Assembly (NCBI GenBank): GCA_963708045.1
Contig: OY970181.1
Coordinates: forward strand, 779,537 to 843,536
Length of the DNA stretch: 64,000 nt
Reading direction: 5' to 3'
From: an uncultured bacterium
GTDB lineage: Bacteria; Patescibacteriota; Patescibacteriia; CAIQCM01
The position numbers and the translations under genes were made by a program. Below the pieces are notes generated by a model that made no database searches, had not been told where the DNA came from, and saw only the letters and a list, made by a program, of their open reading frames with translations. Within the stretch, counting starts at the first letter, position 1. Every line of letters begins with the position of its first letter. Positions 12,664 through 52,094 of the stretch are shown here, piece after piece.

Positions 12664-12676
12664 TAAATTTGTATTT

Positions 12677-13814: not shown

Positions 13815-13825
13815 GATATAAGATT

Positions 13826-14545: not shown

Positions 14546-14601
14546 AGTTGGGAATAATAAAAATGTTCAAGGTGTAATTAGCTAGATTCTATTAAAAACA
14601 T

Positions 14602-15156: not shown

Positions 15157-15222
15157 TACTAACAAGCGTGGGCAAGAGCTGGGCCATGTTTTTCCGGTGG
15201 CGAGCTGTCTATTATCGGGTAA

Positions 15223-16545: not shown

Positions 16546-16555
16546 GATCACATAT

Positions 16556-17452
16556 ATGTGTTTGTTATCAAAAGACATAGTAAAATCCGTTTTTAGTGAT
16601 AATTTTCCTTTAGTAAAAACGAATAGAGAATTGGAGGCGCTAATCAATGCGAATACCTGTTTTGATTCATCATATGTTTCATCGGGATGTATTTCAAATA
16701 GAAAAGAAAAAATTGATGCACTCTGGCCTATTTTTAAGCCGTATGCTGATAAAGATTTTTTAAATCAAATACGTTTAGATTTTGATCAAAGGTGTTGGGA
16801 AATGTATTTGGCTAATTTATTTAACGGTCATTTTGACATCTCGGCGAGCAATAATAATCATGGACCAGATTTTATTTTAAATAAACAAATTTGTGTTGAG
16901 GCCACCGTATGTAATCATGGCGAGGGTTCGGACAGGGTTCCTGAGATTCGCATAGCAGATTTTACAAAAGGTGAACATCCAATCGTGCAAACGATTCCAG
17001 AAAAAGAAATGATTTTAAGAATAACCTCCGCGATTAGTGAAAAGTTAACACAATATAGTCGGTGGCTGGGTAGTATCTCGTCAATAAATGAGCAATCGCC
17101 ATTTGTGATTGCGATAAACATGGGTAGTTTGGGGTTTCCAAGTCCGGGAGATTTACCGTTTATTTTGAAACCTTTGTTTGGAATTGGCCATAGGCAGTTT
17201 CAGAAGGACTCCGATTGTTTATTGGATTGTGGTTGGAGTTTCCGTCCAACTACCGTTAAAAAAAATGGCTCGCAAGTTAACACTTGCATCTTTGATGATG
17301 GACAATATGCGGCAATAAGCGCCATTTTATTTTCGGGAACGCGGGTTCTCGATCACCCACAGACTATTGGAACGGATTGCATTGTTGTTCGTAACCTCAA
17401 TGCGAAGAATCCGATTAATCCAGAGATTTTTTCCTTTCTTCGTGTTTATTAA
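16556..17452 (+). CDS. hypothetical protein (298 aa)
   Basis: ATG 11 nt after the recombinase stop (the track start 16442 overlaps the recombinase). No confident motif. Confidence 0.45.
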   Translation: MCLLSKDIVKSVFSDNFPLVKTNRELEALINANTCFDSSYVSSGCISNRKEKIDALWPIFKPYADKDFLNQIRLDFDQRCWEMYLANLFNGHFDISASNNNHGPDFILNKQICVEATVCNHGEGSDRVPEIRIADFTKGEHPIVQTIPEKEMILRITSAISEKLTQYSRWLGSISSINEQSPFVIAINMGSLGFPSPGDLPFILKPLFGIGHRQFQKDSDCLLDCGWSFRPTTVKKNGSQVNTCIFDDGQYAAISAILFSGTRVLDHPQTIGTDCIVVRNLNAKNPINPEIFSFLRVY

Positions 17453-29199: not shown

Positions 29200-29469
29200 A
29201 TACTTGTATCTTACACCCAAACCGGGACAGGACCGCTTATTGACGACATACTGGTATACTGCAAAACAATTCTCTGTGATTTGACTGACTAAGACGCCGT
29301 GAGTGAAAAATTCGCCAAGGCGTCTTTCTTAATTAAAAAATCGCCGGTTTATAAACCGATACTCTGACTTGTCCAGATATTTATCTTGAAGAGAGTGGAC
29401 GAAAATGTTATCTTAAGTAGTGAGCATCAATTAATCGAAAGCCGTATTTATTTGTACATCCAAGTTTCT

Positions 29470-32400
29470 ATGAAAAAAGTTTTTGGGACAATACTCTTGG
29501 TAGTCTTGGTGTTGGTGGGCTTCCTTGAACATGTTCCAAATGCTTCCGCTGCCGTGGACTGGGTTGCGTATAATGACGCCGGAGGGTCAGCCAATTTTGC
29601 ATCAACGGGAAATGTCACCAACTATAGTTTTACGCAAGCAAGCGCGGCTAATTTATTGAAATATGCCGATGGCACCAGCTCTGGCGTCACGGTTGCTTTT
29701 GCCGGAACCAACAATGGAGTGTACGCCGCTGCCGATGGTACTTACGCTAGTCCATACGTAACATCAAGCACGGATGCTTATAATGAATTAGTCGGCGGTG
29801 GAACGCCCATTATCAATTTGGGTTATGCCAGCCAAGTAACAACAACCAACACCATCACCATGACTTTGAGTGGTGTTTCGTCTGCCAAAACTTATGATTT
29901 GGTGATGTTTGGCGACCGTGGCAACAGTACCTATACGACCAGATACACCAAATACACCGTATCGGGCGTTCAAAGCGGGTTTGTGAACGCAAGTTCTACG
30001 GGCGCTACGAAAGCCACAACGACTTTGGCAAATGATTCAACATATTATTGTACAGGGTTCAACTATACTGCGGGTTATGTTGCAAAGTGGACCGGTTTGG
30101 TTCCGACAGGTACCACCATAACGGTCACTATTAAAGGGGTGGATGCAACCGGAGCGAGTGTCAGCATGACCGCTTATCTTAACGCCTTCAAGCTCACCCA
30201 AAATACCCCAACTTCTATCGTCGCGCCGACCGTTACGGCTTCGGCCGCGAGCACTATTACGGCGAACGGTGCTGACTTAAACGGTAATATCACTGTTGAT
30301 GGGGGAGAGTCCGCTACTGCAAGAGGTTTCCATTATGGTCTCACCGCTTCATACGGTTCAACTTCTACCACCTCCGGAACATACGGCACGGGCGCGTATT
30401 CGCAAACTATTTCCGGCTTAACTTGCAACACTCTTTACCATTACAGATCTTTTGCCACGAACTCGGGCGGCACCGGCACGTCGGCGGACGGCACTTTTAC
30501 CACCTCGGCGTGTTCCGCGCCGACCGTTACGGCTTCGGCTGCGAGCACTATCACGACCACTGGTGCTGATTTGAATGGTAATATCACGGCTGACGGCGGA
30601 GCCGCTCCTACCGCCAGGGGTTTTTATTATGGAACCACCGTTTCGTACGGCTCGACCTCTTCCACGACCGGCACATACACCACGGGTACATATTCCCAAA
30701 GCATTACTGGTTTAACCTGCAATACTCTTTATCATTATCAGGCCTTTGCTACTAACTCCGGTGGTACAGGGACCGCGACCGATGGAACCTTCACCACTGC
30801 GGCATGTCCTGTTGCGCCTACTGTTACAGCTTCAGCCGCTAGCTCGATTACGACTACTGGTGCGACCTTGACCGGCAACATTACCGCTACTGGTGGGGAA
30901 AATGCCACTGCAAGAGGTTTTCATTATGGAACCACTGTTTCATACGGTTCAACTTCTACCACTTCCGGTTCGTATGGCACTGGTGAATATACGCAAGACA
31001 TTACTGGCTTAACTTGCAACACTCTTTATCATTACCGATCTTTCGCCACTAACTCAGGCGGTACCGGCACCTCGTCGGACAACACCTTCACCACTGCGGC
31101 ATGTCCTGTTGCGCCAACTGTTACAGCTTCAGCTGCTAGCTCGATTACGACCACTGGCGCGACCTTGACCGGCAACATTACCGCTACTGGTGGGGAAAAT
31201 GCCACCGCAAGAGGTTTTCATTATGGACTCACCGCTTCATATGGTTCAACTTCTACCACTTCCGGTTCGTATGGCACTGGTGAATATACGCAAGACATTA
31301 CTGGCTTAAGCGCCAATACCATTTACCATTACAGGTCTTTTGCTACTAACTCGGGTGGCACCAGCACCTCTTCAGATAATACTTTCACCACCTCGGCTTA
31401 TTCGGTTCCCGGTGCCCCTACCAGCGCGGTCGCAACAGCCGGCAACACGCTAGCGTCCGTTGCTTTCACCGCCCCGGCATCGGACGGCGGCTCGCCCATC
31501 ACCGGCTACACCGTTACTTCAAGTCCGGGAAGTTTTACCGGCACAGGCGGCACTTCGCCGATCGTTGTTTCTGGTCTCACGAACGGCACGGCCTACACCT
31601 TTACGGTAACGGCGACGAATGTGGCTGGCACGGGTTCGGCTTCGACCGCCTCAAACTCGGTGACCCCGGCGCCCGCCGCGGGTTGGGTGGCGTATAACGA
31701 CGCTGGAGGATCGGGTACTTCGCCATCAACGGGCAATGTCACCAACGTCGCTTTTACGACGACGGCGGCAACTAATTTGGTGAAATATTCCGACAACACT
31801 AGTAGTGGTGTCACGGTTGCTTTTGCTAAAAGGGGTACCACTGGGACTTTTCAGTTGGGAGTCGCTGCCGAAGATACAGCTTCCAGCAACAGAGCATCTC
31901 CGTATGTAACATCTGGTACAGACGCCTACAATGAATTTGTCGGTGGGGGAACACCCATCATCAATTTGGGTTACGCGGGCCAAATAACGACAAACGGCAT
32001 TGTTGACATGACTTTGAGCGGCGTTTCGTCCGGTAAATCTTATGATTTAACGCTGGTGGCCTTGCGAGGTTATAACAACGCCAGTTATACAGGCAGGTAT
32101 ACGAAGACTATCGTATCGGGCGTCCAGGCAGGATTCACAAATGCCAGCTCGACCGGAACCACTATCACCACCACGACTTTGACGAACGATACCACGCGAT
32201 ATGTTGGGGGAGATAACTATGCGAACGGCTATGTTGCCAAGTGGACTGGTTTGGTTCCGACAGGCACCACCATATCCGTCTCATTTCAAGGTGTAGATTT
32301 GACTGGCGCAACCGGAGTAACCAACGCCCAAACCGCTTACCTTAACGCCTTCAAGCTCACCGAAAATGGTGCATCTTCAACAACTGTGCCGACCGTTACG

Positions 32401-35400
32401 GCCTCGGCCGCGACTTCGGTCACAGCTACCGGCGCCGCATTGAATGGCAATATCACAGCTGATGGCGGAGTCGCTCCGACCGCCAGAGGTTTTCATTATG
32501 GAACTACAGCTGCATACGGCTCGACCTCTTCCACGACCGGCACATATACCACGGGCACATATTCTCAAAGCATTACCGGCTTGACCTGCAATACCCTTTA
32601 TCATTACCGATCTTTTGCCACCAACTCGGCCGGTACCGCCACCTCGACGGACAGCACCTTCACCACCTCGGCGTGCTCCGCACCGGGAGCGCCGACCAGT
32701 GTTGTTGCGACAGGTGGCAATGCGCAAGCATCCGTCGCTTTCACGGCTCCGGCAAACGACGGTGGCTCGGCAATAACCGGCTACACCGTCACCTCAAGTC
32801 CGGGAAGTTTTACCGGCACAGGAAGTGCTTCGCCAATTGTCGTCACCGGACTCACGAACGGCACGGCATACACTTTCACAGTTACCGCGACGAATGCGAT
32901 CGGTACGGGTGCGGCTTCGACCCCCTCGAGTTCGATTACTCTGTCTACTGGAACAGGACCGCTCATTTCATCGGCGGCATCGCAGATGTTTTTGACGGGT
33001 AGTGCCGCGGCTGCGATTTCTACGATAACCGTAACCGACAATACTCTTACTCCGTACATAACGGCCGCTAACGACATCCGCATCAAAATTCCTTCTGGCT
33101 TCAACATGGTCTGGGATTCGACGGATACCGCCGCCACTATTGGTGGAGCGGCGTCAGCTCATGTATCGGGAACGGTTTCGTACGAAGACGCGGATAAGAC
33201 CCTGGTCATTAATGTCAGCGAAAATTTTGCTGTTAGCGACGTAATAACCATTTCCGGCCTGTCTTTCAAGACCTTCAGCGCGGCGTCCGTGGCCGATAAT
33301 TTGGAATTGGAGGTCAACAATGCCGGCACGACAATCGCCGTGGATGACAAGACGATTTCCATCACCGCAGTGACTGTTTCTTCTGCTGCTAACCAGACAT
33401 TTACCGTCGCAGATCCGACAACCGCGATGTCGCAAATTACCGTCACTGACAGCGCTTCGTCTCCGTATATAACGGCTACCAACGACATCAGGATCAAAAT
33501 TCCAGCCGGCCTCGACATGACTTGGGATGCAGCTGCTTTGGGAAGCGTTGTTATTGGCGGCGCAGCATCGGCCAAGATTAGCACCTCGGGAGGTCTTGAT
33601 TCGCCGTACACGCCGATCGTTAACTTGCACAGGGCGAACTTGCACGGGCATACCACGAATAGCGACGGCGCCCAGACGGCGTTCGGCCTACATGACTTCA
33701 TATTTGAACCTCGGTTATTCGGCGGCCGCCATCACTGATCACGATTATTTCACGCCCAACCCGAGCGTTTCTGGCATTACCCACGTGAGGGGTGTTGAGA
33801 ACACGGCCAATGCCGCCGGTGGAATGGGGGATATGGCTTCGTTTGGCATAACTTCATTTTTGTCGTCAAACAGGCAGACACAGGTCGATACCTATACGAG
33901 CCAAGGAGGTGTTTCTAGCGTCAACCATCCTATCACCGGTTGGACTAACGCCGGCACGGTGAATTTGAATGGCTACACAAATATGGAAGTCTTCAACTCC
34001 CATTACGGGGATTTGGAGCCGTATGTTGACTATGCGTTAAGCAACGGCAAACAGTTTTGGCTTGTTGCGAACGATGACCTTCATACTACTATTCAGATAT
34101 ACCGTGCTTGGAACGAGTTAAACAGCTCAAAGACCGTCGGAAACCTTACCGAAGCCGATGTCGTGAATATAATAAAAAGCGGCGATTTCTATGCTTATGG
34201 CAGAGGGGACAGAAGCAATGCTCCTGCTGCAGATCAACAGTACGGCAGTTTGCCGACCCCAGCTAAGTTTACGGGCATTACGGTGAGTGGTTACGCGGTT
34301 ACCGCTAATATCGATAAGAGCGCCAACATACAATTCATCACGAAAAACGGGACGATTTCGCAAACCAACAATAGTGTGACGACAGCCAGCTATACAGCGT
34401 CGCTCACTGATATTTATGTCAGGGTAAAGGTGTCCTACACTTCCGGGGGAAAAACCGCATACTCATTCAGCAACCCGATTTACATAACGGAGTCGGGCCC
34501 GGCGGCAGTTTCTTTGGAAGACAGCGGCAAGACGCTGGTCATCGATGTTGGAACTAACTTTGTTGCAGGTGACGCAATAACTATTTCGGGATTAAAATTC
34601 AACAACTTTACTACAGCGGGTTCCGGTAATTTGACCTTGTCGGTTAGCGGATCGGGAGCCACGGTAAATGACACTGACGACAAAACGATAACCATTGAAT
34701 CGGGATTACTGACCCCGACCGCTTCCATCACCAACACACCCCGGTCATACAACGGCTCGGCTCAAACCGCGACTGTCGCCTGTACAGGCGGAGGCACTGC
34801 CACGATCGCATCGGGCGGAACCGGAACTGATGCAGGGTCGTATGCGACCACGGTGAACTGCGCCGCGAGCGCTGGCTATGAAGCTGCGACAGGACTTTCA
34901 GCAGGAAACTTTGTTATCTCCAAAGCAACTCCAACTGCCTCCATCACCAACACACCCCGGTCATACAACGGCTCAGCTCAGACGGCGAACGTTGCTTGTT
35001 TAGGTGGAGGCGCCGCTACAATAAACACTGGCGGAACTGGCACCAATGCTGGTTCATACGCAACCACGGTTGATTGCGCCACGAGCACTAACTACTCCGC
35101 AGCAACAGGACTTTCAGCAGGGAACTTTGTTATTGAAAAAATAGCCCCTACTGCTTCCATCACTAATTCGTCTCAGCCATACACTGGCTCAGCGCAGACC
35201 GCGACTGTTGCTTGCTTGGGTGGAGGAACTGCCACGCTTGCGTCAGGTGGAACCGGAACTGATGCAGGTTCGTATGCAGCCACCGTCAACTGTGCCACGA
35301 GCACCAATTATTCCGCAGCTACGGGACTTTCAGCAGGAAATTTCGTTATTGAAAAAATAGCTCCGACTGCTTCTATCACCAACACGCCACGGTCATACAC

Positions 35401-38400
35401 CGGCTCAGCTCAGACGGCGAACGTTGCTTGTTTAGGTGGAGGCGCCGCTACAATAAACACCGGTGGAACTGGCACAAGCGCTGGTTCATACGCAACCACG
35501 GTTGATTGTGCCACGAGCACTAACTACTCTGCAGCAACAGGACTCTCAGCGGGAAATTTCGTTATTGAAAAAATAGCTCCAACTGCCTCCATCACCAACA
35601 CGCCTCAGTCATACAACGGCTCGTCGCAAACCGCGAACGTTGCTTGTTTAGGTGGAGGAACTGCCACGCTTGCCTCAGGTGGAACTGGAACTGATGCAGG
35701 ATCGTATGCAGCCACCGTCAACTGCGCCGCGAGCACCAACTACTCTGCAGCAACAGGACTTTCGGCAGGAAATTTCGTCATTGAAAAAATAACTCCAACT
35801 GCTTCCATCACCAACACGCCTCAGTCATACAACGGCTCGTCGCAAACCGCGAACGTTGCTTGTTTAGGTGGAGGAACTGCCACGCTTGCCTCAGGTGGAA
35901 CTGGAACTGATGCAGGTTCATACGCAACCACGGTTGATTGTGCTACGAGCACCAACTACTCTGCAGCAACAGGACTCTCGGCCGGAAACTTCGTCATTTC
36001 CAAAGCAACTCCGACTGCTTCCATCACCAACACGCCCCGGTCATACAATGGTTCAGCTCAAACCGCGACCGTCGCCTGTACGGGCGGAGGCGCCGCTACA
36101 ATAAACACCGGTGGAACTGGCACAAGCGCTGGTTCATACGCAACCACAGTTGATTGTGTTGCAAGCACAAACTACTCCGCCGCCACGGGACTTTCGGCGG
36201 GTGACTTCGTCATTTCCAAAGCAACTCCAACTGCCTCCATCACCAACACACCCCGGTCATACAATGGTTCAGCTCAAACCGCGACTGTTGCTTGTTTGGG
36301 TGGAGGTGCCGCTACAATAAACACTGGCGGAACTGGCACCAATGCTGGAACATACGCAACCATGGTTGATTGCGCCACAAGCACCAACTACTCTGCAGCC
36401 ACCGGACTTTCAGCAGGGAACTTTGTTATTGAAAAAATAGCTCCAACTGCTTCCATCACCAACACACCCCGGTCATACAATGGTTCAGCTCAAACCGCGA
36501 CTGTTGCTTGTTTGGGTGGAGGTGCCGCTACAATAAACACGGGTGGAACTGGCACCAATGCTGGAACATACGCAACCACGGTTGATTGCGCCACAAGCAC
36601 CAACTATAATGCCGCCACCGGATTATCGGCAGGCGACTTCGTAATCTCTAAGATTGCTCCTACCGCTTCCATCACCAATTCGTCTCAGCCATACACTGGC
36701 TCAGCGCAGACGGCGACTGTTGCTTGTTTAGGTGGAGGCGTTGCCACGCTTGCGTCAGGTGGAACTGGAACTGATGCAGGATCGTATGCAGCTATAGTTG
36801 ATTGCGCCACAAGCACCAACTACTCTGCAGCCACCGGACTTTCAGCAGGGAACTTTGTTATTGAAAAAATAGCTCCAACTGCTTCCATCACTAATTCGTC
36901 TCAGCCATACACTGGCTCAGCGCAGACTGCGACTGTCGCCTGTACAGGCGGAGGCGCCGCTACAATAAACACCGGTGGAACTGGCACAAGCGCTGGTTCA
37001 TACGCAACCACGGTTGATTGTGCCACGAGCACCAACTACTCCGCAGCAACAGGACTCTCGGCAGGAAATTTCGTTATTGAAAAAATAGCCCCAACTGCTT
37101 CCATCACTAATTCGTCTCAGCCATACACTGGCTCAGCGCAGACCGCGACTGTTGCTTGTTTAGGTGGAGGCGTTGCAACGCTTGCCTCAGGCGGAACCGG
37201 AACTGATGCAGGTTCGTATGCAGCCACCGTCAACTGCGCCGCGAGTACCAACTACAATGCCGCCACCGGATTATCGGCAGGCGACTTCGTAATCTCTAAG
37301 ATTGCTCCTACTGCCTCCATCACCAATTCGCCTCAGTCATACAACGGCTCAGCGCAGACTGCGACTGTCGCCTGTACAGGCGGAGGCGCCGCTACAATAA
37401 ACACCGGTGGAACTGGCACAAGCGCTGGTTCATACGCAACCACAGTTGATTGTGTTGCAAGCACAAACTACTCCGCCGCCACGGGACTTTCGGCGGGTGA
37501 CTTCGTCATTTCCAAAGCAACTCCAACTGCCTCCATCACCAACACACCCCGGTCATACAATGGTTCAGCTCAAACCGCGACTGTTGCTTGTTTGGGTGGA
37601 GGTGCCGCTACAATAAACACTGGCGGAACTGGCACCAATGCTGGAACATACGCAACCATGGTTGATTGCGCCACAAGCACCAACTACTCTGCAGCCACCG
37701 GACTTTCAGCAGGGAACTTTGTTATTGAAAAAATAGCTCCAACTGCTTCCATCACTAATTCGTCTCAGCCATACACTGGCTCAGCTCAGACCGCGACTGT
37801 TGCTTGTTTAGGTGGAGGCGTTGCCACGCTTGCGTCAGGTGGAACTGGAACTGATGCAGGATCGTATGCAGCTATAGTTGATTGCGCCACAAGCACCAAC
37901 TACTCTGCAGCCACCGGACTTTCAGCAGGGAACTTTGTTATTGAAAAAATAGCTCCAACTGCTTCCATCACTAATTCGTCTCAGCCATACACTGGCTCAG
38001 CGCAGACTGCGACTGTCGCCTGTACAGGCGGAGGCGCCGCTACAATAAACACCGGTGGAACTGGCACCAATGCTGGAACATACGCAACCATGGTTGATTG
38101 CGCCACAAGCACCAACTACTCTGCAGCCACCGGACTTTCAGCAGGGAACTTTGTTATTGAAAAAATAGCTCCAACTGCTTCCATCACTAATTCGTCTCAG
38201 CCATACACTGGCTCAGCTCAGAACCGCGACTGTTGCTTGTTTAGGTGGAGGCGTTGCCACGCTTGCGTCAGGTGGAACTGGAACTGATGCAGGATCGTAT
38301 GCAGCTATAGTTGATTGCGCCACAAGCACCAACTACTCTGCAGCCACCGGACTTTCAGCAGGGAACTTTGTTATTGAAAAAATAGCTCCAACTGCTTCCA

Positions 38401-41400
38401 TCACTAATTCGTCTCAGCCATACACTGGCTCAGCGCAGACTGCGACTGTCGCCTGTACAGGCGGAGGCGCCGCTACAATAAACACCGGTGGAACTGGCAC
38501 AAGCGCTGGTTCATACGCAACCACAGTTGATTGTGTTGCAAGCACAAACTACTCCGCCGCCACGGGACTTTCGGCGGGTGACTTCGTCATTTCCAAAGCA
38601 ACTCCAACTGCCTCCATCACCAACACACCCCGGTCATACAATGGTTCAGCTCAAACCGCGACTGTTGCTTGTTTGGGTGGAGGTGCCGCTACAATAAACA
38701 CTGGCGGAACTGGCACCAATGCTGGAACATACGCAACCATGGTTGATTGCGCCACAAGCACCAACTACTCTGCAGCCACCGGACTTTCAGCAGGGAACTT
38801 TGTTATTGAAAAAATAGCTCCAACTGCTTCCATCACTAATTCGTCTCAGCCATACACTGGCTCAGCTCAGAACCGCGACTGTTGCTTGTTTAGGTGGAGG
38901 CGTTGCCACGCTTGCGTCAGGTGGAACTGGAACTGATGCAGGATCGTATGCAGCTATAGTTGATTGCGCCACAAGCACCAACTACTCTGCAGCCACCGGA
39001 CTTTCAGCAGGGAACTTTGTTATTGAAAAAATAGCTCCAACTGCTTCCATCACTAATTCGTCTCAGCCATACACTGGCTCAGCGCAGACTGCGACTGTCG
39101 CCTGTACAGGCGGAGGCGCCGCTACAATAAACACCGGTGGAACTGGCACCAATGCTGGAACATACGCAACCACGGTTGATTGTGTTGCAAGCGCTAACTA
39201 CTCTGCAGCTACAGGACTTTCAGCAGGGAACTTCGTCATTGAAAAAATAACTCCAACTGCTTCCATCACTAATTCGTCTCAGCCATACACTGGCTCAGCG
39301 CAGACGGCGACTGTTGCTTGTTTAGGTGGAGGCGTTGCCACGCTTGCGTCAGGTGGAACTGGAACTGATGCAGGATCGTATGCAGCTATAGTTGATTGCG
39401 CCACAAGCACCAACTACTCTGCAGCCACCGGACTTTCAGCAGGGAACTTTGTTATTGAAAAAATAGCTCCAACTGCTTCCATCACTAATTCGTCTCAGCC
39501 ATACACTGGCTCAGCGCAGACTGCGACTGTCGCCTGTACAGGCGGAGGCGCCGCTACAATAAACACCGGTGGAACTGGCACAAGCGCTGGTTCATACGCA
39601 ACCACAGTTGATTGTGTTGCAAGCACAAACTACTCCGCCGCCACGGGACTTTCGGCGGGTGACTTCGTCATTTCCAAAGCAACTCCAACTGCCTCCATCA
39701 CCAACACACCCCGGTCATACAATGGTTCAGCTCAAACCGCGACTGTTGCTTGTTTGGGTGGAGGTGCCGCTACAATAAACACTGGCGGAACTGGCACCAA
39801 TGCTGGAACATACGCAACCATGGTTGATTGCGCCACAAGCACCAACTACTCCGCAGCAACAGGACTTTCGGCTGGAAACTTTGTTATTGAAAAAATAACT
39901 CCAACTGCTTCCATCACCAATTCGTCTCAGCCATACACTGGCTCAGCGCAGACCGCGACTGTTGCTTGTTTGGGTGGAGGTGCCGCTACAATAAACACCG
40001 GTGGAACTGGCACTAACGCCGGGTCATATGCGACCACGGTTGATTGCGCCACAAGCACAAACTACTCCGCAGCAACGGGACTCTCGGCAGGAAACTTTGT
40101 TATTGAAAAAATAACTCCTACAGCTTCCATCACTAATTCGTCTCAGCCATACACTGGCTCAGCGCAGACGGCGACTGTTGCTTGTTTAGGTGGAGGCGTT
40201 GCAACGCTTGCCTCAGGTGGAACTGGAACTGATGCAGGATCGTATGCAGCTATAGTTGATTGCGCCACAAGCACCAACTACTCTGCAGCCACCGGACTCT
40301 CGGCAGGAAATTTCGTTATTGAAAAAATAGCCCCAACTGCTTCCATCACTAATTCGTCTCAGCCATACACTGGCTCAGCGCAGACCGCGACTGTTGCTTG
40401 TTTAGGTGGAGGCGTTGCAACGCTTGCCTCAGGCGGAACCGGAACTGATGCAGGTTCGTATGCAGCCACCGTCAACTGCGCCGCGAGTACCAACTACAAT
40501 GCCGCCACCGGATTATCGGCAGGCGACTTCGTAATCTCTAAGATTGCTCCTACTGCCTCCATCACCAATTCGCCTCAGTCATACAACGGCTCAGCGCAGA
40601 CTGCGACTGTCGCCTGTACAGGCGGAGGCGCCGCTACAATAAACACCGGTGGAACTGGCACAAGCGCTGGTTCATACGCAACCACAGTTGATTGTGTTGC
40701 AAGCACAAACTACTCCGCCGCCACGGGACTTTCGGCGGGTGACTTCGTCATTTCCAAAGCAACTCCAACTGCCTCCATCACCAACACACCCCGGTCATAC
40801 AATGGTTCAGCTCAAACCGCGACTGTTGCTTGTTTGGGTGGAGGCGTTGCAACGCTTGCCTCAGGCGGAACTGGAACTGACGCAGGTTCGTATGCAGCCA
40901 CCGTCAACTGTGCCACGAGCACCAATTATTCCGCAGCTACTGGACTTTCGGCAGGCGACTTCGTTATCTCCAAGGCCACTCCAACCGCTTCCATCACCAA
41001 TACGCCTCAGCCATACACTGGCTCCTCGCAGACCGCGACTGTTGCTTGTTTGGGTGGAGGAGCTGCTACTCTCGTTTCCGGCGGAACCGGCACCAGTGTG
41101 GGGTCGTATGAAGCCTTCGTTAACTGTGCTGCCAGCGCCAACTATAACGCCGCCTCGGGGCTTTCGGCGGGCTTCTTCATTATCGGAACAGTAGCCCCCA
41201 CTGCCTACATTACCAACTCACCTCAGCTATACACCGGTTCAGCACAGACCGCTACGGTGGCTTGCACGGGCGGAGGAGTAGCCACTATCGCTTTAGGCGG
41301 AGTCGGCACTAACATCGGTTCATATCCGACCACTGTGAACTGCGCCGCAAGTCCCGGATACGAAGCGGCTACCGGCCTAGACGCCGGGAGTTTCGTCATC

Positions 41401-44400
41401 TCCAAGGCCACACCCACCGCTTCAATCATCAATTCGCCGCAGGTATACACCGGCTCCTCGCAAACTGCGACTGTCGCTTGTTTGGGTGGAGGAACTGCCA
41501 CGCTTGCCTCAGGCGGAACCGGCACCAATGCGGGAACATATCCTGCAATCGTCAACTGCGCTGAAAGCACAAATTACAATGCAGCCACAGGCCTCTCGGC
41601 AGGAAACTTCGTCATTGAAAAAATAACTCCAACTGCCTCCATCACCAACACGCCTCGGTCATACAACGGCTCGGCGCAAACCGCCACGGTGGTATGTTTG
41701 GGCGGAGGAACTGCCACGCTTGCCTCAGGCGGAACCGGCACCAATGCGGGAACATATCCTGCAATCGTCAACTGCGCCGCGAGCACCAACTATAACACCG
41801 CCTCGGGACTTTCAGCAGGCGATTTCGTAATCTCTAAGATTGCTCCGACCGCTTCCATCACCAATACACCTCAGCCATACACTGGTTCCTCGCAAACTGC
41901 CGCTGTCGCTTGTTTGGGTGGAGGAGTAGCAACGATTGCGACCGGTGGTACTGGTACTGATGCAGGTTCATACGCAACCACGGTTGATTGTGCTACGAGC
42001 ACCAATTACTCCGCCGCCACAGGACTCTCGGCCGGAAATTTCGTCATCTCTAAAGTAACTCCAACTGCCTCCATCACCAACACACCACAGTCATACAATG
42101 GCTCAGCTCAGACGGCCGTCGTTGCTTGTTTGGGTGGAGGCGCCGCTACAATAAACACGGGTGGAACTGGCACAAGCGCTGGTTCATACGCAACCACCGT
42201 TGACTGCGCCACGAGCACCAATTATTCCGCAGCTACGGGACTTTCGTCAGGGAACTTTGTCATCTCTAAAATTGCTCCAACAGCTTCCATAACCAACTCG
42301 CCTCAGTCGTACACCGGTTCGTCGCAAACGGCGGCCGTGTCTTGCTTGGGCGGGGGCGCTGCCACGATTAATACAGGCGGAACCGGAACTGACGCGGGAA
42401 CATATCCGGCCACGGTTGACTGCGCCACAAGCACCAACTACTCCGCCGCTACGGGACTTTCGGCTGGAAATTTCGTCATCTCCAAAGCAACTCCTACGGC
42501 TTCCATCACCAATTCGCCTCAACCATATACCGGCTCAGTTCAGACCGCCATCGTTGCTTGTTCGGGCGGAGGTGTTGCCACGCTTGCCTCAGGCGGAACT
42601 GGAACTGATGAAGGTACATATCCTACAATCGTCAACTGCGCTGAAAGCGCCAACTACTCAGCCGCTACGGGACTTTCGGCAGGTGACTTCGTTATTGGAA
42701 AAATAAACCCGACCGCTTCCATCACCAATACGCCACGGTCATACAACGGCTCAGCTCGAGACGGCGACTGTCGTCTGTACGGGCGGGGGCACTGCTACAA
42801 TAAACACTGGCGGAACTGGAACTAACGCCGGATCGTATGCGACCACAGTTGATTGTGCCGCAAGCGCTGGTTACTTCGCAGCCACGGGACTTTCAGCAGG
42901 AAACTTTGTTATTGAAAAAATAGCTCCAACTGCCTCCATCACCAACTCACCACGGTCATACACTGGTTCAGCCCAAACAGCGAACGTTGCTTGTTTAGGT
43001 GGAGGCACCGCTACAATAAACACCGGTGGAACTGGCACTAATGCGGGAACATACGCAACCACGGTTGATTGTGCTACGAGCACCAATTACTCCGTCGCCA
43101 CAGGACTCTCGGCCGGAAATTTCGTCATCTCTAAAGTAACTCCGACAGCTTCCATAACCAACTCACCCCAAACACACACTGGCTCGTCTCAAACTGCCGC
43201 GGTTTCTTGTTTGGGCGGAGGTGTCGCAACGATAAACACAGGCGGAACCGGAACTAATGCGGGAACATACGCAACCACAGTTGATTGTGCCACGAGCACC
43301 AACCACTCCGCAGCCACCGGACTTTCAGCAGGCGACTTCGTTATCTCCAAGGCCACTCCAACTGCTTCTATCACCAATTCGCCGCAGCTATATAACGGTT
43401 CGGCTCAAACGGCCGTCGTGTCTTGTTTGGGTGGAGGTGTTGCGACGCTCGCATCTGGCGGAACCGGCACTAATGCTGGAACATATGCCGCAGTCGTCAA
43501 CTGCGGCACAAGCACTAACTACTCCGCCGCCACGGGACTTTCGGCAGGAAACTTTGTCATTGAAAAAATAACTTCAACTGCTTCCATAACCAACTCGCCC
43601 CAAACATACACCGGCTCGGCGCAAACCGCGAACGTCGCTTGCTTGGGCGGAGGTGCCGCTACAATAAACACCGGTGGAACTGGCACTAACGCCGGGTCAT
43701 ATGCGACCACTGTTAACTGCGCCACGAGCACTAACTACAGCGCGGCCTCGGGACTCGCGGCGGGCGACTTCGTAATCTCTAAAGCGACTCCGACTGCTTC
43801 CATCACCAACACACCCCAGACATACACTGGTTCCGCTCAAACCGCGAACGTTGCTTGCTTGGGCGGAGGCGTTGCGACTCTTGCCTCAGGTGGAACTGGA
43901 ACTGATGCAGGTTCGTATGCGGCCACCGTCAACTGCGCCGAAAGTGCTAACTACTCAGCGGCTACAGGACTCTCGGCGGGAAACTTCGTCATCGGCGCTA
44001 CCCCAGTGGTAATCAGCGTTGCGGCAATACCCGGAGTCACGATCCCTGTGAGAGCAGTAACTCCAGTGTCAACTATAGCTGACACTGGTGAATACACCGC
44101 GACAATTACATGGTCGCCTGTAAGTAATCCATTTGCAGCAAACACCGTTTATACGGCAACAATTACGATCACGCCCAATGCGGGTTATACCTTAACAGGT
44201 ATAGCAAGTAATTTCTTTACAGTAGCTGGAACAAGTATTCCAGCTACAAATTCAGCAGGATCTGGGGTGGTCACGGCAGTATTTCCGGCGACGGGATCTG
44301 CGCCTTCTAGCGGTGGCGGTGGCGGCGGCGGTGGTGGCGGCGGGTATTATGTTCCACCACCAATCGCTCCGGTTGTTTCTGTTACGCCCCCTGTGTTGAC

Positions 44401-45070
44401 TCCGGCTCCGGTTGTTCCTGTTACACCCACCGAGACTTCTCCAACTCCAACTCCAGCTCCAGCGGTTTCTGATCAGGATAAATTCAAAAAGAATTTAACC
44501 TACCTCACAACGAACTCGGATATACGCGAGTTGCAAAAATATTTTAACGCAAACGGCTTCATAGTTGCATCAAGAGGCGCTGGTTCGCCAGGCAAGGAAA
44601 CGGATTATTTCGGCGATTCAACCTTAAGCACTCTCATTAAATTCCAAGAAGCAAATAAAGATAAAGTTGTTGGATTAATTGATGAAAAAGGATATTTTGG
44701 TCCGATAACTCGACAATTGATCAATACGATAATAATCACAAATCCAACTCCAGCTCCAGCGGTTTCTGATCAGGATAAATTCAAAAAGAATTTAACCTAC
44801 CTCACAACGAACTCGGATATACGCGAGTTGCAAAAATATTTTAACGCAAACGGCTTCATAGTTGCATCAAGAGGCGCTGGTTCGCCAGGCAAGGAAACAG
44901 ATTATTTCGGTGATTCAACCTTAAGCACTCTCATTAAATTCCAAGAAGCAAATAAAGATAAAGTTGTTGGATTAATTGATGAAAAAGGATATTTTGGTCC
45001 GATAACTCGACAATTGATCAATACGACAATAATCACAAATCCAACTCCAGCTCCAGCCCAGCAACCCTAA
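29470..45070 (+). CDS. giant (about 15.6 kb) cell-surface repeat protein gene, reading frame interrupted by four +1 shifts (near 33690, 38222, 38871 and 42757). It is either a pseudogene or an indel/assembly error in the repeats
   Basis: Signal peptide 'MKKVFGTILLVVLVLVGFLEHVPNASA' at 29470. The protein theme then continues without stops across frame 1 (to 33738), frame 2 (to 38287), frame 3 (to 38936), frame 1 (to 42825) and frame 2 (to 45070). Domains: a duplicated roughly 230-aa N-module, five Fn3-like roughly 97-aa repeats plus two Fn3 domains, a PHP domain, about forty 72-aa repeats, a poly-Gly/Pro linker and 2 x PG_binding_1. Confidence 0.7.
30229..31392 (+). repeat. four tandem roughly 291-bp Fn3-like repeats (a fifth copy at about 32383-32676)
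   Basis: Repeated 'PTVTASAAS.IT..GA.L.GNIT..GG..ATARGFHYG.T.SYGSTS.TSG.YGTG.Y.Q.I.GLTCNTLYHYRSFATNSGGTGTS'. Confidence 0.7.
33600..34130 (+). other. PHP (polymerase and histidinol phosphatase) phosphoesterase domain embedded in the giant protein, split by the first frameshift
   Basis: Frame 1 carries 'NLHGHTTNSDGAQT' (PHP motif I, D/N-L-H-x-H-T-x-x-S-D-G). Frame 2 continues 'YLNLGYSAAAITDHDYF' (motif II, AITDHD) with the expected spacing of about 27 aa. Later come 'NMEVFNSHYG' and 'LVANDDLHT' (the G-S-D-A-H-like motif). Confidence 0.55.
34700..43990 (+). repeat. about 40 tandem 216-bp (72-aa) repeats with two conserved Cys per unit (count estimated from length, not counted exactly)
   Basis: Unit consensus 'PTASITN[ST][PS][RQ][SP]Y[NT]GS[AS]QTA[TN]VAC[LT]GGG.AT[IL][NA][TS]GGTGT[NDS]AG[ST]YA..V[DN]CA[TA]STNYSAATGLSAG[ND]FVI[ES]K[IA]'. 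Several subtypes are present. There are long near-identical blocks, e.g. 38221 vs 38870 (period 649 = 3x216+1). Confidence 0.8.
44455..45036 (+). repeat. near-identical tandem duplication (2 x about 291 bp) encoding peptidoglycan-binding (PG_binding_1-like) domains
   Basis: 'PTPAPAVSDQDKFKKNLTYLTTNSDIRELQKYFNANGFIVASRGAGSPGKETDYFGDSTLSTLIKFQEANKDKVVGLIDEKGYFGPITRQLINT' occurs twice with only a few synonymous nucleotide differences. The pattern matches PG_binding_1 (L..G....DG.FG..T..A...FQ...GL..DG..G..T...L). Confidence 0.6.
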
Positions 45071-45299: not shown

Positions 45300-47126
45300 A
45301 TGATACGTAAAAGTAGCGATGGAAGGCGCGAAATCGTTCGCAGTATTAACGGAACGCCTCATGGCGGTCATTTGGAAACATTGGCCAAATTGGCTTTCGC
45401 GGTCATGCTGGTCGTGAACTTGCTGTCCTGGATGAATCAACGGTCTAAGCACGAGGTAGTCGCGACTCAGCACGGAGACATTGCGGCTTTGCACAAGGCC
45501 GAAGCGGCCTTTCAGACTTTTCAGTCCAAAGGAAATGCTTGGACGATTGATGATCTGGTCAACGTGCGAAACACACTCGTCACGATCCGCGATGCCGAGG
45601 GACACAGCCAGTCCGTAAGCACACGCATTGACGCGCTAGTTCAGGCCTCGGTCGGGAAAACTCTTGATGCGCTCAATAGTGCGGCGGCCGCATCTATTAC
45701 TGTGAAAGAAAGGATCGTTACTCAGGGTCGGGTGGAAAGGGTGCGAAGCGAACTGTTTTCTCACCCCCCATTTCAACCGGTCTTCGCGGGCGGTTTCGGA
45801 CATATTCTTTGGGCGCTGGCCAAGCTGGGCGGCAAGACCTACTTGCTGTTCATGTCGTTTGCGCTTCTCTGTTTTCTGGCGCGGGTATCAAGGAACCGGT
45901 TGTCACTCAGTGACGAATTGATGTTCGGGTTTCGGCGTCTCGCCGTTTCAACGGTCTTTTGGCCGGCTGGGATGTCCGAGTATCCGCGCGATACGGCCTT
46001 CGTGTTGCGTCGCCAGAAGATCGCCAAGGAATATTTGGTGCGGCATGGTAGAAGTGTTTGGGACTCGCTTACTGAAATGGATCAACGCGCCATTGACCGA
46101 CTGGTCATGCAGCCGCTCACTGAACTGCGTCAAAGTCTGGACGCGATTCGCGAACTCCCGTTCCGTCTCGTGCTCAAAGCCCGTCTCGCGTTCTGTGTCT
46201 CAGTGTTCGCGAGTTACATGCTTACGGTGACCACTTTCGGTCGCAGTACGGCTCATGCGGCGGAAAATACCGCGGTTACCGACGTGGCGGCGCAAGTCAC
46301 CACGCCTTCGCAAGATGCGCCGGAGGTTCCCCAACCGCTCAGTCTGAGCGGTTTTACGCAAGTTTCGGCGAACATGGAGAACGGCAACACCAAAGCCGAA
46401 CGCATGTTTATCCGAGGCGTTAGCGGCCCGTTCAAAGGACTAACTGTTAACTTAATGGGCAATGTCGTGAATCCGGCCTTGCTTATTGCTCAGGCAGTTT
46501 ACCGGCGCGGTTCAATTAGTGTCGGCGCCGGACAGATTGTCTACCCATCGGCGCTCCAGGTTCCTTCTCCGGACGGGCAAAGGATTATTGGCGGCCCGCT
46601 GTGTCAAAGTCTGATTCCTTTCTGGGGACTTGGCGCGGAAGTGCTCGGGGATCATGGGGTGGTTAAGTGGGGATTGGCGTATTTGTCCGAAACCGATCTT
46701 GGTGCACCAGGAGTCCGCAAACCGCGTTCGGCTCAAGCAGCGCTCTCTTTGCCAAAATTGGGACCATTTGGTTTACTGGTCACGGCAACCGTTGGCAAAG
46801 ATGACGCAGGAATACATGCCTATTATTCGGCAATGGCAAACCTCCATCTCGGCCCAGTTGATGTGGTTGGCAATGGCGTCCTCAACAAAGACGCGGGCGT
46901 CTTTTCCAAAGGAGTAACGGGTTTCCTCGGCTGGCATTTCACCCCGCATTTAGATGTTACGGGGCAATTCGACCGGCTCGAAGTTCCCAACGCTCCCGTG
47001 AATCAGCGCTTCGGGTTGCAAATCACTGCGCTTGGCTGGACAGATCGTCTGAGACTCGGAATCCTTGGATTCAGAAGCTCAGTCGCCGGCCTTGGTTCGC
47101 TCATGCGCTTGCAGTTCGCATTCTGA
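45300..47126 (+). CDS. hypothetical protein (608 aa) in a visibly GC-richer segment. The C-terminal third has beta-barrel/porin-like alternating hydrophobicity and ends in '...LQFAF'
   Basis: 1.8-kb ORF. Internal TM-like helices ('HILWALAKLGGKTYLLFMSFALLCFLARV'). C-terminal aromatic residue. GC is clearly higher than the flanks by eye (not computed). All competing ORFs are short. Confidence 0.4.
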   Translation: MIRKSSDGRREIVRSINGTPHGGHLETLAKLAFAVMLVVNLLSWMNQRSKHEVVATQHGDIAALHKAEAAFQTFQSKGNAWTIDDLVNVRNTLVTIRDAEGHSQSVSTRIDALVQASVGKTLDALNSAAAASITVKERIVTQGRVERVRSELFSHPPFQPVFAGGFGHILWALAKLGGKTYLLFMSFALLCFLARVSRNRLSLSDELMFGFRRLAVSTVFWPAGMSEYPRDTAFVLRRQKIAKEYLVRHGRSVWDSLTEMDQRAIDRLVMQPLTELRQSLDAIRELPFRLVLKARLAFCVSVFASYMLTVTTFGRSTAHAAENTAVTDVAAQVTTPSQDAPEVPQPLSLSGFTQVSANMENGNTKAERMFIRGVSGPFKGLTVNLMGNVVNPALLIAQAVYRRGSISVGAGQIVYPSALQVPSPDGQRIIGGPLCQSLIPFWGLGAEVLGDHGVVKWGLAYLSETDLGAPGVRKPRSAQAALSLPKLGPFGLLVTATVGKDDAGIHAYYSAMANLHLGPVDVVGNGVLNKDAGVFSKGVTGFLGWHFTPHLDVTGQFDRLEVPNAPVNQRFGLQITALGWTDRLRLGILGFRSSVAGLGSLMRLQFAF

Positions 47127-47838: not shown

Positions 47839-48774
47839 ATGAAAAAACGAATATTTATTTATTTGTTAACAATTGTACTTTTAGCAACGCCGATTTTATC
47901 TTTTGCGGCGGTTCCAGCGAACACGATTGGTCGTATTCTTTTGCAAGTTCAATCATCTGGCGAAGCTTGGTATGTGAGTCCGGTTACTAAAACGCGTGTC
48001 TACCTTAAAAACGGCGCGATGGCATATGACTTGCTCAGAACAGACGGTTTGGGAATAACAAAAAACGATTTATCTTTAATACCGATTGGGATTGAAGATC
48101 GTTTCGTTGGCTCTGATACTGATACTGACGGCGATGGTTTACCCGACACCCTTGAGCAAGCCATAGGAACGGATCCGAATAAAGTTGATACTGATGGTGA
48201 CGGCTTTTCTGATGGTGTTGAGGTTCGGAGTGGCTATGACCCCGTCGGCAACAAATCCGGCGCCAAAACTATCATCAACGCCGCGCTTACCAAACGTCTC
48301 TCGGGGCGCATTGTTATTGATGTCTCAAGGGTTGGTCAGGCTTGGTATATAAATCCGTCTAATCTTAAACGGTATTTTCTGAAGGATGGAAACGCGGCTT
48401 ACACGATCATGCGATATTTAAGTTTGGGTATCACCAACGCCAGTCTGGCGTTAATACCAATTGCTGCCCAAACGATTTCAGCAACTGGCGTCGCCAGTGT
48501 CCAATTAATATTAGAAGATTTTCGTCAAGCGTTCTTAACTTGCGATATGTCGCTGATTACAAAACACTCAACCGTTGAAACTTCAAAGATTGTATTGTCT
48601 TCATCGGCGCAATGCAAGAAGGCTAGTTCGGTAAAAGTTGAAAGCGTTACCGTAACTTCTAATTCAAATATTGAAGCTGTTTTGCAAATTGAAGGGGAAG
48701 CAAGCGGAAGCAAAGTTTTAATTTTTGTAAACGAAAATGGCGGTTGGAAGTTTGATATTAACGCCACTTATTGA
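47839..48774 (+). CDS. secreted protein with thrombospondin type-3-like calcium-binding repeats
   Basis: Signal peptide 'MKKRIFIYLLTIVLLATPILSFA'. 'DTDTDGDGLPDTLEQAIGTDPNKVDTDGDGFSDGVE' are TSP3-type D-x-D-x-D-G-x-x-D repeats. The duplicated flanking domain contains 'GEAWYVSP' / 'GQAWYINP'. Confidence 0.5.
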   Translation: MKKRIFIYLLTIVLLATPILSFAAVPANTIGRILLQVQSSGEAWYVSPVTKTRVYLKNGAMAYDLLRTDGLGITKNDLSLIPIGIEDRFVGSDTDTDGDGLPDTLEQAIGTDPNKVDTDGDGFSDGVEVRSGYDPVGNKSGAKTIINAALTKRLSGRIVIDVSRVGQAWYINPSNLKRYFLKDGNAAYTIMRYLSLGITNASLALIPIAAQTISATGVASVQLILEDFRQAFLTCDMSLITKHSTVETSKIVLSSSAQCKKASSVKVESVTVTSNSNIEAVLQIEGEASGSKVLIFVNENGGWKFDINATY

Positions 48775-50159: not shown

Positions 50160-51038
50160 ATGAAAGGAATAATAATGGCTGGCGGAAGAGGAACGCGGCT
50201 TTACCCGCTTACTCTCGCGACAAATAAAACGCTCTTGCCGGTTTATGATAAACCGATGGTTTTTTATCCGCTTTCGGTTTTAATGCAAGCTGGCATTAAG
50301 GATATTTTGATTATTTCCACACCCCACGATTTGCCTGGCTTTAAAAAACTTTTAGGCAACGGCGATAATTTTGGCATCAATGTTTCTTATGCCGAAGAGC
50401 CGGAACCAAAAGGTTCGGCGATGGCGATAACTCTTGGCGCTGAATTTATTGGTAGTGACAGTGTTGTTGTTATTTACGGTGACAATATAATTTACGGCGT
50501 CGAGCTTCCAAAACTGTTAAAAGAAGCGGCCAGCAACACCGCTCGTGCGACAATTTTTGGGTATTATGTAAACGATCCGTCCCGCTATGGTGTTGTTGAA
50601 TTTGATGAAAACGAAAAAATTATTTCCGTTGAAGAAAAACCCAGTAAGCCAAAATCCAACTACGCCGTAATTGGTTTATATTTTTATGATAACCGGTCAA
50701 TTGATTTTGCCAAAAAAGTTCAGCCGAGCGTAAGGGGGGAGCTGGAAATAACCGACATAACCCAAATGTATTTAGCGGCCGGGGATCTGGACGTTAAACT
50801 TTTGGGAAAGGGTTATGCCTGGCTTGATACGGGTACGGTTGATTCGCTTATGGAGGCGAATTATTATATTCAAACCATAGAAGAACGCCAAAATACTAAA
50901 ATTGCCGCCCTTGAAGAAATTGCCTATTTAAACGGTTGGATAACCAAAGATAAATTAATTGAAGTCGGCACCAAGTACTCCAAATCTCCTTACGGTCAGC
51001 ATTTATTGCGGGTGGTGGAGGGTAAACTAAAAAACTAG
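50160..51038 (+). CDS. rfbA: glucose-1-phosphate thymidylyltransferase
   Basis: '[16 protein letters not shown]' nucleotidyltransferase signature. Whole-length RmlA-like pattern ('[14 protein letters not shown]', 'GLYFYD'). Confidence 0.85.
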
Positions 51039-51044
51039 TGATAT

Positions 51045-52028: not shown

Positions 52029-52094
52029 GTGTTAGTAGTCTCCTATGTTTAATTTTGGCGACAATTGGTTGGGTATTGTATAGTTAATAACTAT

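Follow-up and report, generated by a model that had tools for sequence, protein, structure and literature searches.

A PHP-superfamily domain divided between two reading frames in a giant repetitive surface-protein gene of a Patescibacterium

The closest described proteins to the domain studied here are the carbaryl hydrolases of the NCBIfam family NF038032 (CehA/McbA), i.e., CehA of Rhizobium and McbA of Pseudomonas, with which it has in common the PHP-type His/Asp motifs and a C-terminal beta-sandwich. Characterised CehA/McbA members are exported with signal peptides. McbA is periplasmic and has essential His residues in its PHP-like domain, and carbamate (carbaryl) hydrolase activity is known only for CehA and McbA (PMC8292978). 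The best structural matches, which are also profile matches, are BVU_3505 of Bacteroides vulgatus (3e38), a two-domain PHP-like predicted phosphoesterase, and TM0559 (2anu). The literature yielded nothing relevant on PHP domains within giant surface proteins or surface proteins of Patescibacteria.

We analysed a stretch of 64,000 nucleotides (hereafter the window) from a small-genome bacterium of the Patescibacteria/CPR type. The contig from which it comes measures 1,188,223 bp, and the named relatives of a neighbouring protein, GlgA, are Wolfe-, Giovannoni-, Sung- and Pacebacteria (Parcubacteria). We scanned the window for Rfam families and tRNAs and found none. Positions 29470..45070 of the forward strand form a single gene for a cell-surface protein of ~5,200 residues (5,198 codons plus the stop once four single bases are removed). 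As deposited, this gene consists of five overlapping open frames; the repaired ORF is free of internal stops (Table 1).

Table 1. Features of the giant surface-protein gene, in window coordinates
Feature	Position	Strand	Remarks
Open frame 1	29368-33735 (ORF 29386..33738)	+	Holds motif I
Predicted signal peptide MKKVFGTILLVVLVLVGFLEHVPNASA	29470..29550	+	Read off the translation, no predictor; followed by AVDW
Region with two fn3 domains (about 31408-31650, 32689-32931)	31408..32931	+	Pfam fn3 E=9e-19, two stretches
Second copy of N-terminal WVAYNDAGGS...AYLNAFKLT module	inside 31408..32931	+	Motif coordinates
Open frame 2	33521-38284 (ORF 33527..38287)	+	Holds motif II
CehA/McbA-like PHP metallohydrolase module (barrel + C-terminal beta-sandwich)	33595..34492	+	Residues 1376-1674 of repaired protein
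PHP motif I NLHGHTTNSDG (H17, H19, D24, domain numbering)	33637..33669	+	Frame 0
Extra base of the PHP-domain +1 shift	33679..33688 (about 33688)	+	Stretch GCGTTCGGCC
PHP motif II AAAITDHD (D48, H49)	33722..33745	+	Frame +1; 28 residues downstream of motif I
TGA stop ending frame 0	33736..33738	+	16 codons past shift
Asp (GAT) at predicted metal-ligand position	33830..33832	+	His in 93% of 144 relatives; Asp in 5/144
NMEVFNSHYG	33980-34009	+	Downstream of motif II
C-terminal PHP motif NDDLH (D161, H163)	34070..34084	+	Motif coordinates
43 tandem repeats of 216 nt (72 aa)	34703..44011	+	Each contains ...Y(N/T)GSAQTATVAC.GGG...NY.AATGLSAGNFVI.K
Open frames 3, 4, 5	38169-38933; 38818-42822; 42707-45067	+	Frame map
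Second +1 shift, extra A	38223	+	CAGAACC vs CAGACC in other copies
Third +1 shift, same extra A as 38223	38872	+	38057-38500 identical to 38706-39149 (444 nt)
Fourth +1 shift, extra G	42758	+	CTCGAGAC vs CTCAGAC in other copies
Poly-Gly linker	44312-44344	+	Precedes PG_binding_1 pair
Two C-terminal PG_binding_1 (peptidoglycan-binding) domains, duplicated 99-aa unit	44471..45022	+	Pfam E=1e-13, two stretches

From the N- to the C-terminus, the repaired protein has a predicted signal peptide, a region with two copies of a ~210-aa module, five ~98-aa repeats and two fn3 domains, two "DIRIKIP...ISGLxF" domains, the PHP module, a third "ISGLxF" domain, the 43-repeat array, the poly-Gly linker and the PG_binding_1 pair. 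The phase of the array is exactly kept (216 = 72 x 3), and its central copies are up to 100% identical. The 72-aa repeats have no Pfam match at E<=1. We rejected their identification as MBG_2 (PF18676), since hhalign against the MBG_2 repeats of one relative (P0030) gave a probability of 0.4% and Pfam gave no match. The signal peptide, the wall-binding domains and the long repeat array are together consistent with a wall-associated repetitive surface protein. The initial annotation had described a secreted, wall-anchored, adhesin-like protein; the predicted signal peptide, the repeats and PG_binding_1 agree with it, but no sortase-type or LPXTG signal is visible at the C-terminus and the anchor would be non-covalent.

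Once one base is removed within 33679-33688, the PHP domain comprises 299 aa and matches NF038032 with 59.4 bits (E=3.7e-16, profile positions 4-314 of 315), below the curated cut-off of 80 bits. The frame +1 part alone scores 40.9 bits (profile positions 36-314), so joining both frames adds 18.5 bits and 32 N-terminal profile positions. The Pfam PHP profile (PF02811), proposed earlier as a check, does match the repaired domain, but only at profile positions 2-46 and with 16.1 bits (E=0.015), under the gathering threshold of 26.4 bits; intact relatives also score just 20-22 bits. The AF2 model (pLDDT 87.8, pTM 0.88) has beta-strands at domain residues 225-292. Its top Foldseek matches in the PDB are 3e38 (E=7e-10), 2anu (E=1e-8), 7ug9, 2yb1 and 9etk, and all 13 matches with E<=1e-3 are PHP-family structures. 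A profile search of the PDB returned the same set.

Eight of the nine predicted metal ligands are kept according to the alignment (H17, H19, D24, H49, E68, H111, D161, H163), as are 38 of the 45 strongly conserved columns. The ninth ligand is an Asp in place of His, which could reflect relaxed selection. H17, H19, D24, D48 and H49 align with columns at least 94% conserved in 144 relatives, and this holds only with the frames joined. By profile, fold and ligand pattern, a PHP-superfamily domain is thus present inside the surface protein. Structure prediction, also proposed at the outset, gave a PHP fold; the putative metal-binding residues were traced by alignment, with one His replaced by Asp. 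The domain falls in the CehA/McbA-like branch of the superfamily. The relatives P0029-P0032 score 70-74 bits with NF038032 and P0005 scores 85.5 bits; since the closest intact relatives also fall below the cut-off, the domain of the window is placed in a sister clade. The first description as a PHP phosphoesterase stands for the superfamily, whereas "phosphoesterase" is a putative activity, because the only characterised members of the branch are carbamate hydrolases.

The two N-terminal motifs lie in different frames at a PHP-like spacing, and NMEVFNSHYG and NDDLH follow downstream, as had been noticed from the sequence. We located the shift by comparison with the closest homologue, P0029, which reads SDGSLTPTQYMELY at the junction, where frame 0 of the window gives SDGAQTAFG and frame 1 gives YMTSY. 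T28 (frame 0) and YM at domain positions 32-33 (frame 1) agree with P0029. As P0029 matches on both frames, the extra base was placed within 33679-33688, i.e., in the last 10 nt of the string quoted in the initial annotation and not in the 20 nt after it. The repaired peptide crosses the junction as ...SDGAQTAFGYMTSYLNLGY... and aligns there without a gap to 10 homologues; the closest relatives each match it in one unbroken stretch. The claim that a +1 shift splits the domain is borne out by this alignment and by the gain in profile score.

Two or more separate genes, with a secreted N-terminal protein ending at 33738 and an independent protein starting at 33527 or 33692, would be the least credible reading of the locus. 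Both ORFs are long and open, and there is an ATG at 33692 in frame 1. Yet such a division would cut the PHP domain between motifs I and II, leaving a downstream product that lacks a signal peptide and the HxH motif, and the same 116-nt frame-overlap pattern recurs inside the repeats. Homologues carry the domain uninterrupted, which speaks against the truly separate genes that had been considered at the outset.

The giant gene (15.6 kb) contains four 1-nt insertions, at about 33688, 38223, 38872 and 42758; the last three were absent from the initial annotation. They are scattered over the gene, so the shift is no peculiarity of the PHP domain and reflects a gene-wide lesion or assembly problem. 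Three of the four fall in near-identical tandem repeats, whereas the PHP-site insertion sits in unique sequence. Base runs at all four sites are at most 2 nt. The repaired gene has no nonsense mutations or larger defects and its catalytic motifs are intact. We found no frameshifts in the other genes checked, over ~48 kb of the window, where suspicious ORF overlaps outside the giant gene correspond to separate, complete genes with full-length profile matches. The assembly is therefore otherwise accurate.

That all four shifts go in one direction (+1) would fit programmed +1 ribosomal frameshifting or phase variation, regulating the amount of full-length surface protein; phase variation commonly affects proteins of the cell surface. 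We nevertheless regard this as very improbable. The three distinct sites (GCGTTCGGCCTAC, CTCAGAACCGC and CTCGAGACGG) lack a common slippery motif, the 0-frame stop at the PHP site lies downstream of the shift and not at it (Table 1), and no homopolymer or short tandem repeat exceeds 2 nt at any site. Four successive low-efficiency shifts would yield negligible full-length product, and the intact homologues need none. We ascribe no function to the frame break in the PHP domain, and the data support no biological message in it.

The break is most likely either a sequencing or consensus error or a very recent gene-killing mutation, and we favour the consensus error. The best joint explanation, to which we give slightly better than even chances, is a single surface-protein gene that displays a PHP enzyme, with four insertions that are consensus errors and an intact protein in vivo. 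Such errors may have arisen at the four sites from long-read or mixed-population assembly. The "alleles" CAGACC and CAAACC both occur among paralogous repeat copies, and their merger could have produced the CAGAACC found at 38223 and 38872. Read placement and polishing are unreliable in near-identical tandem repeats, which counts for error, as does the fact that four single-base deletions, all of +1 shifts, restore the full ORF with no nonsense mutation. Against error count the absence of shifts in the other checked genes and the position of the PHP-site insertion in unique sequence. Furthermore, the copy at 37785 is identical to the insertion-bearing stretches but lacks the extra A. The same insertion is thus present in two of three otherwise identical ~440-nt copies, which argues against a purely context-driven systematic error.

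A rival reading is a true recent pseudogene, or an inactive form that prevails in the population sampled; the four insertions would then be real and the full protein no longer made. We take this as a serious but somewhat less than even possibility. An insertion that arose in one repeat unit would have spread to a second through gene conversion or unequal recombination, and an identical insertion in two identical 444-nt stretches that is absent from a third is what a copied real mutation should leave. Among the checked genes of the window, frameshifts are confined to the giant gene. The His to Asp change at a ligand position 93% conserved in relatives points the same way. The ORF fragments are missing from the protein collection, in which the neighbours are present, and the public record possibly treats the gene as a pseudogene. 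Finally, a 20-kb Logan contig of ERR12035931 has identical neighbouring proteins, which would fit accurate reads from the sample. However, a gene of 15.6 kb that had gone through three independent frameshifts should also have gathered some nonsense mutations or similar damage, and it has none. Each event adds a single nucleotide and lies outside homopolymers, whereas spontaneous bacterial indels favour deletions and runs. The conserved motifs and the repeat phase are perfectly kept.

We found no same-species copy of the giant gene in the databases searched. The Logan contigs of ERR12035931 and ERR15459707 carry identical neighbouring genes and end short of it. The best match in the GTDB representative genomes was an Acutalibacteraceae protein with 28% identity, and JGI metagenomes matched neither the exact DNA pattern across the shift nor the back-translated peptides. 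No exact product was on record for the ORF fragments or for a neighbouring gene. No protein in the word-index searches exceeded 64% identity, and P0029 alone matched over the full length. P0029 itself (52% identity) was found only by exhaustive phmmer; the first word-index search missed it, misleadingly suggesting that there were no close relatives.

If the gene is intact in vivo, a small-genome and probably host-dependent bacterium may display a metal-dependent hydrolase on a very long stalk. The C-terminal PG_binding_1 domains would hold the protein on the cell wall and the 72-aa repeat array would form the stalk, with the PHP enzyme near its distal, adhesive end. There it might hydrolyse an ester or phosphoester bond of an extracellular or host-surface substrate by means of a metal cluster bound by His, Asp and Glu. 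A bolder and, in our view, unlikely proposal is that the product of the intact gene is a new type of device by which an episymbiotic Patescibacterium interacts with its host. A PHP-type phosphoesterase, atop a 43-repeat stalk anchored in the symbiont's peptidoglycan, would cleave phosphodiester-linked polymers in the envelope of the host for nutrients or access. Candidate substrates would be teichoic acids, phospholipid head groups or extracellular nucleic acids of that envelope. Were this true, modules of this clade, which recur in giant repetitive proteins of the cell surface (P0030, P0031, P0053), would represent a class of surface-displayed enzymes that has gone unrecognised. Several of the closest members are large repetitive surface proteins. 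Being widespread and having only a putative activity, the clade is a reasonable target for characterisation. The locus also matters for curation: single-base frame errors accumulate in long tandem-repeat surface genes, and annotation pipelines may discard the broken genes as pseudogenes, so that an organism's largest surface protein goes unseen.

In CehA and McbA such a domain is the catalytic part of a catabolic enzyme; that of the window is embedded in a ~5,200-aa surface protein and has one ligand His replaced by Asp. BVU_3505 (3e38) has the same arrangement of PHP barrel and beta-sandwich; 3e38 and 2anu are only 14-17% identical in sequence to the window's domain and are both stand-alone proteins, not modules of a giant one. 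RNase AM/YciV (7ug9, 9etk), the pAp phosphatase Cv1693 (2yb1) and the PHP domain of PolX (3au2) have in common with it the fold and the N-terminal HxH...D...DH. The similarity to these nucleic-acid and nucleotide phosphoesterases is mainly in the N-terminal motifs (12-17 bits on equivalog models); unlike the window's domain, they are cytoplasmic and lack the beta-sandwich.

More than 1,000 representative database proteins have a PHP domain of this kind; the relatives number 1,245. P0029 (602 aa), P0030 (2,383 aa), P0031 (1,363 aa), P0032 (1,099 aa) and P0053 (2,477 aa) are 36-52% identical over the 299-aa module. P0029, at the upper end of this range, also has the flanking DIRIKIP/ISGLxF domains and a signal peptide, whereas P0030 carries the module among 15 MBG_2 repeats with Laminin_G_3 and P0053 among seven Flg_new_2 repeats with CARDB. 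All five encode it in one reading frame and keep His at the ligand position that is Asp in the window, and none has the array of 43 x 72 aa with PG_binding_1. The architecture is recurrent and not unusual, as many intact relatives carry the domain inside repetitive surface proteins of 600-2,500 aa.

Translation of the two ORFs that cross 33600-34130 confirmed the motifs and frames described there in the initial annotation. The frame of ORF 29386..33738 (frame 0) reads ...IVNLHRANLHGHTTNSDGAQTAFGLHDFIFEPRLFGGRHH*, and the +1 frame (frame 1, ORF 33527..38287) reads ...AYMTSYLNLGYSAAAITDHDYF..., then VNHPI, NMEVFNSHYG and NDDLH. We removed one base from TTCGGCCTACATG and obtained a 299-aa sequence (33595-34492, the PHP module), which aligned to 10 homologues with no gap at the junction. 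The NF038032 profile (CehA/McbA family metallohydrolase) matched the frame-1 part alone with 40.9 bits (profile positions 36-314) and the joined sequence with 59.4 bits (E=3.7e-16, positions 4-314 of 315). Given these scores and the ungapped alignment, both halves are one domain, i.e., a PHP-type domain is cut by a frame change, as had been proposed. The Pfam PHP model also matched the repaired domain, but below threshold (16.1 vs 26.4 bits). At the shift region the closest metagenomic homologue, P0029, reads SDGSLTPTQYMELY. Because the window matches it in frame 0 (SDGAQT..) and then in frame 1 (..YMTSY), the extra base lies within 33679-33688 (GCGTTCGGCC). This is slightly upstream of the site first suggested.

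The PHP assignment also held at the level of the fold. An AlphaFold2 model of the module, built from a small alignment, was confident (pLDDT 87.8, pTM 0.88), and every PDB structure that Foldseek matched to it significantly was a PHP-fold protein: 3e38 (PHP-like protein of Bacteroides vulgatus with two domains), 2anu (TM0559), RNase AM (7ug9, 9etk), 2yb1 and 3e0f/3o0f. Nucleotide and RNA phosphoesterases are among these structures, and a profile search of PDB sequences returned the same set. An alignment with 144 relatives has 45 columns conserved at ≥80%, and the window domain retained 38 of them, including H17, H19, D24, D48/H49, E68, H111, D160/D161 and H163. One predicted ligand position (33830-32, GAT) is Asp in the window and His in 93% of the relatives; since five of the 144 share the Asp, the substitution may be tolerated. 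The predicted metal-ligand set of the module is near-complete.

The frame map and translations of the giant surface-protein gene revealed five successive open frames, each shifted +1, and removal of four bases gave a single ORF of 5,198 codons with zero internal stops. The product starts with a signal peptide, identified by inspection. Next come an unknown module that occurs twice (WVAYNDAGGS...AYLNAFKLT), a set of five repeats of ~98 aa and a pair of fn3 domains. DIRIKIP/ISGLxF domains flank the PHP module on either side, and the C-terminal part has the 43 tandem repeats, a poly-Gly linker and two PG_binding_1 domains. This domain set, with the tandem repeats, supports the initial description of an extracellular, adhesin-like, wall-associated protein, the attachment being non-covalent peptidoglycan binding. 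The protein that contains this PHP-fold module is secreted, binds peptidoglycan and is highly repetitive. The PG_binding_1 pair would attach it to the wall and the 43 repeats would make up a stalk, holding the PHP module, along with the N-terminal domains, far from the cell, where the predicted enzyme might hydrolyse an ester or phosphoester bond of an extracellular or host-surface substrate. Such a surface-displayed PHP enzyme deserves testing.

Assignment of the 72-aa repeat to MBG_2 was unsupported by the Pfam scan or by alignment to the MBG_2 repeats of the homologue P0030. The ~100-aa flanking domain (…ITVTD…PYITA.NDIRIKIP.G..M.WD…KTLVI.V…ISGL.F…) matched no Pfam model in the window; it is a very widespread repeat in uncharacterised metagenomic proteins (>100 matches at 45-64% identity). 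The G+C content of the giant gene (30000-44000) is 52-55%, vs 38-45% in flanking genes, probably due to Gly/Ala/Thr/Ser-rich repeats; a foreign origin would be the less likely cause.

Features of the window
Feature	Position	Strand	Remark
Large serine recombinase	456-1766	minus	
Large serine recombinase	15223-16545	plus	
N6/N4 DNA methylase	2009-3742		
N6/N4 DNA methylase	8607-9404		
N6/N4 DNA methylase	9364-10725		with ParB_N domain
ResIII helicase	3746-6076		
Terminase large subunit	6646-8199	minus	
HTH protein	8144-8620	minus	small-terminase-like
Giant gene, open frames	29368-33735, 33521-38284, 38169-38933, 38818-42822, 42707-45067		
DIRIKIP/ISGL domains	33073-33267, 33484-33600, 34500-34600		
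PHP motif I	33637-33669		frame of ORF 29386..33738
PHP motif II	33722-33745		+1 frame
NMEVFNSHYG	33980-34009		+1 frame
NDDLH	34070-34084		+1 frame
Tandem repeats	34703-44011		43 copies of 216 nt
Extra A	38223		CAGAACC vs CAGACC in other repeat copies
Extra A	38872		same change as at 38223
Extra G	42758		CTCGAGAC vs CTCAGAC in other repeat copies
608-aa protein	45300-47126	plus	
Protein with bacterial TSP3 repeats	47839-48774		
RmlA and RmlB	50160-52028		
Type IV pilin-like protein	52065-52907		N_methyl motif and Laminin_G_3
NuoF-like flavoprotein and [FeFe]-hydrogenase large subunit, then M10 peptidase	56185-59861		
Glycogen synthase	60426-61997		

Three further lesions were placed by repeat register. 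We slightly favour a consensus artefact as the source of the frame breaks, because the deposited sequence differs from a perfect 15.6-kb ORF by exactly four 1-nt insertions and no other change, none of them in a run of more than 2 nt, and because three of the four fall among repeats whose copies reach 100% identity. Moreover, CAGAACC could come from merged CAGACC and CAAACC, variants that are both present among the array paralogues. That the insertions are real is a credible but less probable reading. It is favoured by the full length of the remaining genes examined in the window, by the unique sequence around the PHP-site insertion and by the His-to-Asp change, but a gene with three fixed independent frameshifts would be expected to have nonsense changes or deletions as well. 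Two exactly identical 444-nt stretches (38057-38500 and 38706-39149) both carry the extra A, and a third copy, at 37785 (37625-38062), is identical over ~437 nt except for lacking it. Such a pattern resembles a genuine mutation duplicated through recombination, and so also speaks for true mutation; either such propagation or an assembly/polishing artefact in the array explains the three ~440-nt copies. No independent copy of the giant gene was found in GTDB representative genomes, JGI metagenomes or protein collections, and the Logan contigs of ERR12035931 and ERR15459707 have identical neighbouring genes but do not extend to the giant gene. It is very unlikely that the shifts are programmed or phase-variable, because the sites have no common motif and no repeat tract, and at the PHP site frame 0 runs on for 16 codons before its stop. 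The frameshift that first drew attention is either a lesion or an artefact.

Named relatives of the neighbouring glycogen synthase (57-62% identity) belong to Wolfebacteria, Giovannonibacteria, Sungbacteria, Pacebacteria and the "Parcubacteria/Patescibacteria group", and the proteins next to the giant gene are found on one public contig of 1,188,223 bp. Together these two results point to a small-genome Patescibacteria (CPR) host. The block at 456-17452 resembles a mobile element or prophage remnant. Directly downstream of the giant gene, the 608-aa protein has no Pfam match; the Phe motif at its C-terminus (...LMRLQFAF) recalls the beta-signal of an outer-membrane beta-barrel, a feature not to be expected in a Patescibacterium. 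This protein might have a functional connection with the giant one. Other surface-type genes close by encode the TSP3-repeat and pilin-like proteins.

When 1.84 billion representative proteins were searched exhaustively with phmmer, 1,245 relatives of the PHP module were retrieved, 15 of them with E<=1e-30. The best, P0029 (52% identity), is a complete secreted protein of 602 aa whose gene has ftsH on one side and an aminoacyl-tRNA synthetase gene on the other; like the giant protein, it has DIRIKIP...ISGLxF domains. Large relatives include P0030 (2,383 aa), P0031 (1,363 aa), P0032 (1,099 aa), P0033 (1,273 aa), P0053 (2,477 aa) and P0113 (2,478 aa). According to Pfam, the module occurs in P0030 together with 15 MBG_2 repeats, Laminin_G_3 and DUF2341, and in P0053 with seven InlB-type B-repeats and CARDB. 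The gene for the secreted stand-alone homologue P0001 (34% identity) immediately follows a MetallophosN/MetallophosC phosphoesterase gene (locus L002, 4088-7068), a weak hint that the clade acts in extracellular phosphoester metabolism.

On NF038032 the close relatives reach 70-74 bits, likewise just under the 80-bit cut-off, which places the window domain in a sister clade of this curated family. We classed it as CehA/McbA-like, and not as a member, because the curated score was not reached. The only characterised enzymes of this nearest family are exported carbaryl hydrolases, in which PHP-like His residues are essential (PMC8292978). The module is uninterrupted in all close relatives, whereas it is frame-broken in the window. 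A known superfamily gains another member, with a recurrent but unstudied architecture, and a surface-displayed PHP enzyme is plausible, yet not unexpected given its many intact relatives.
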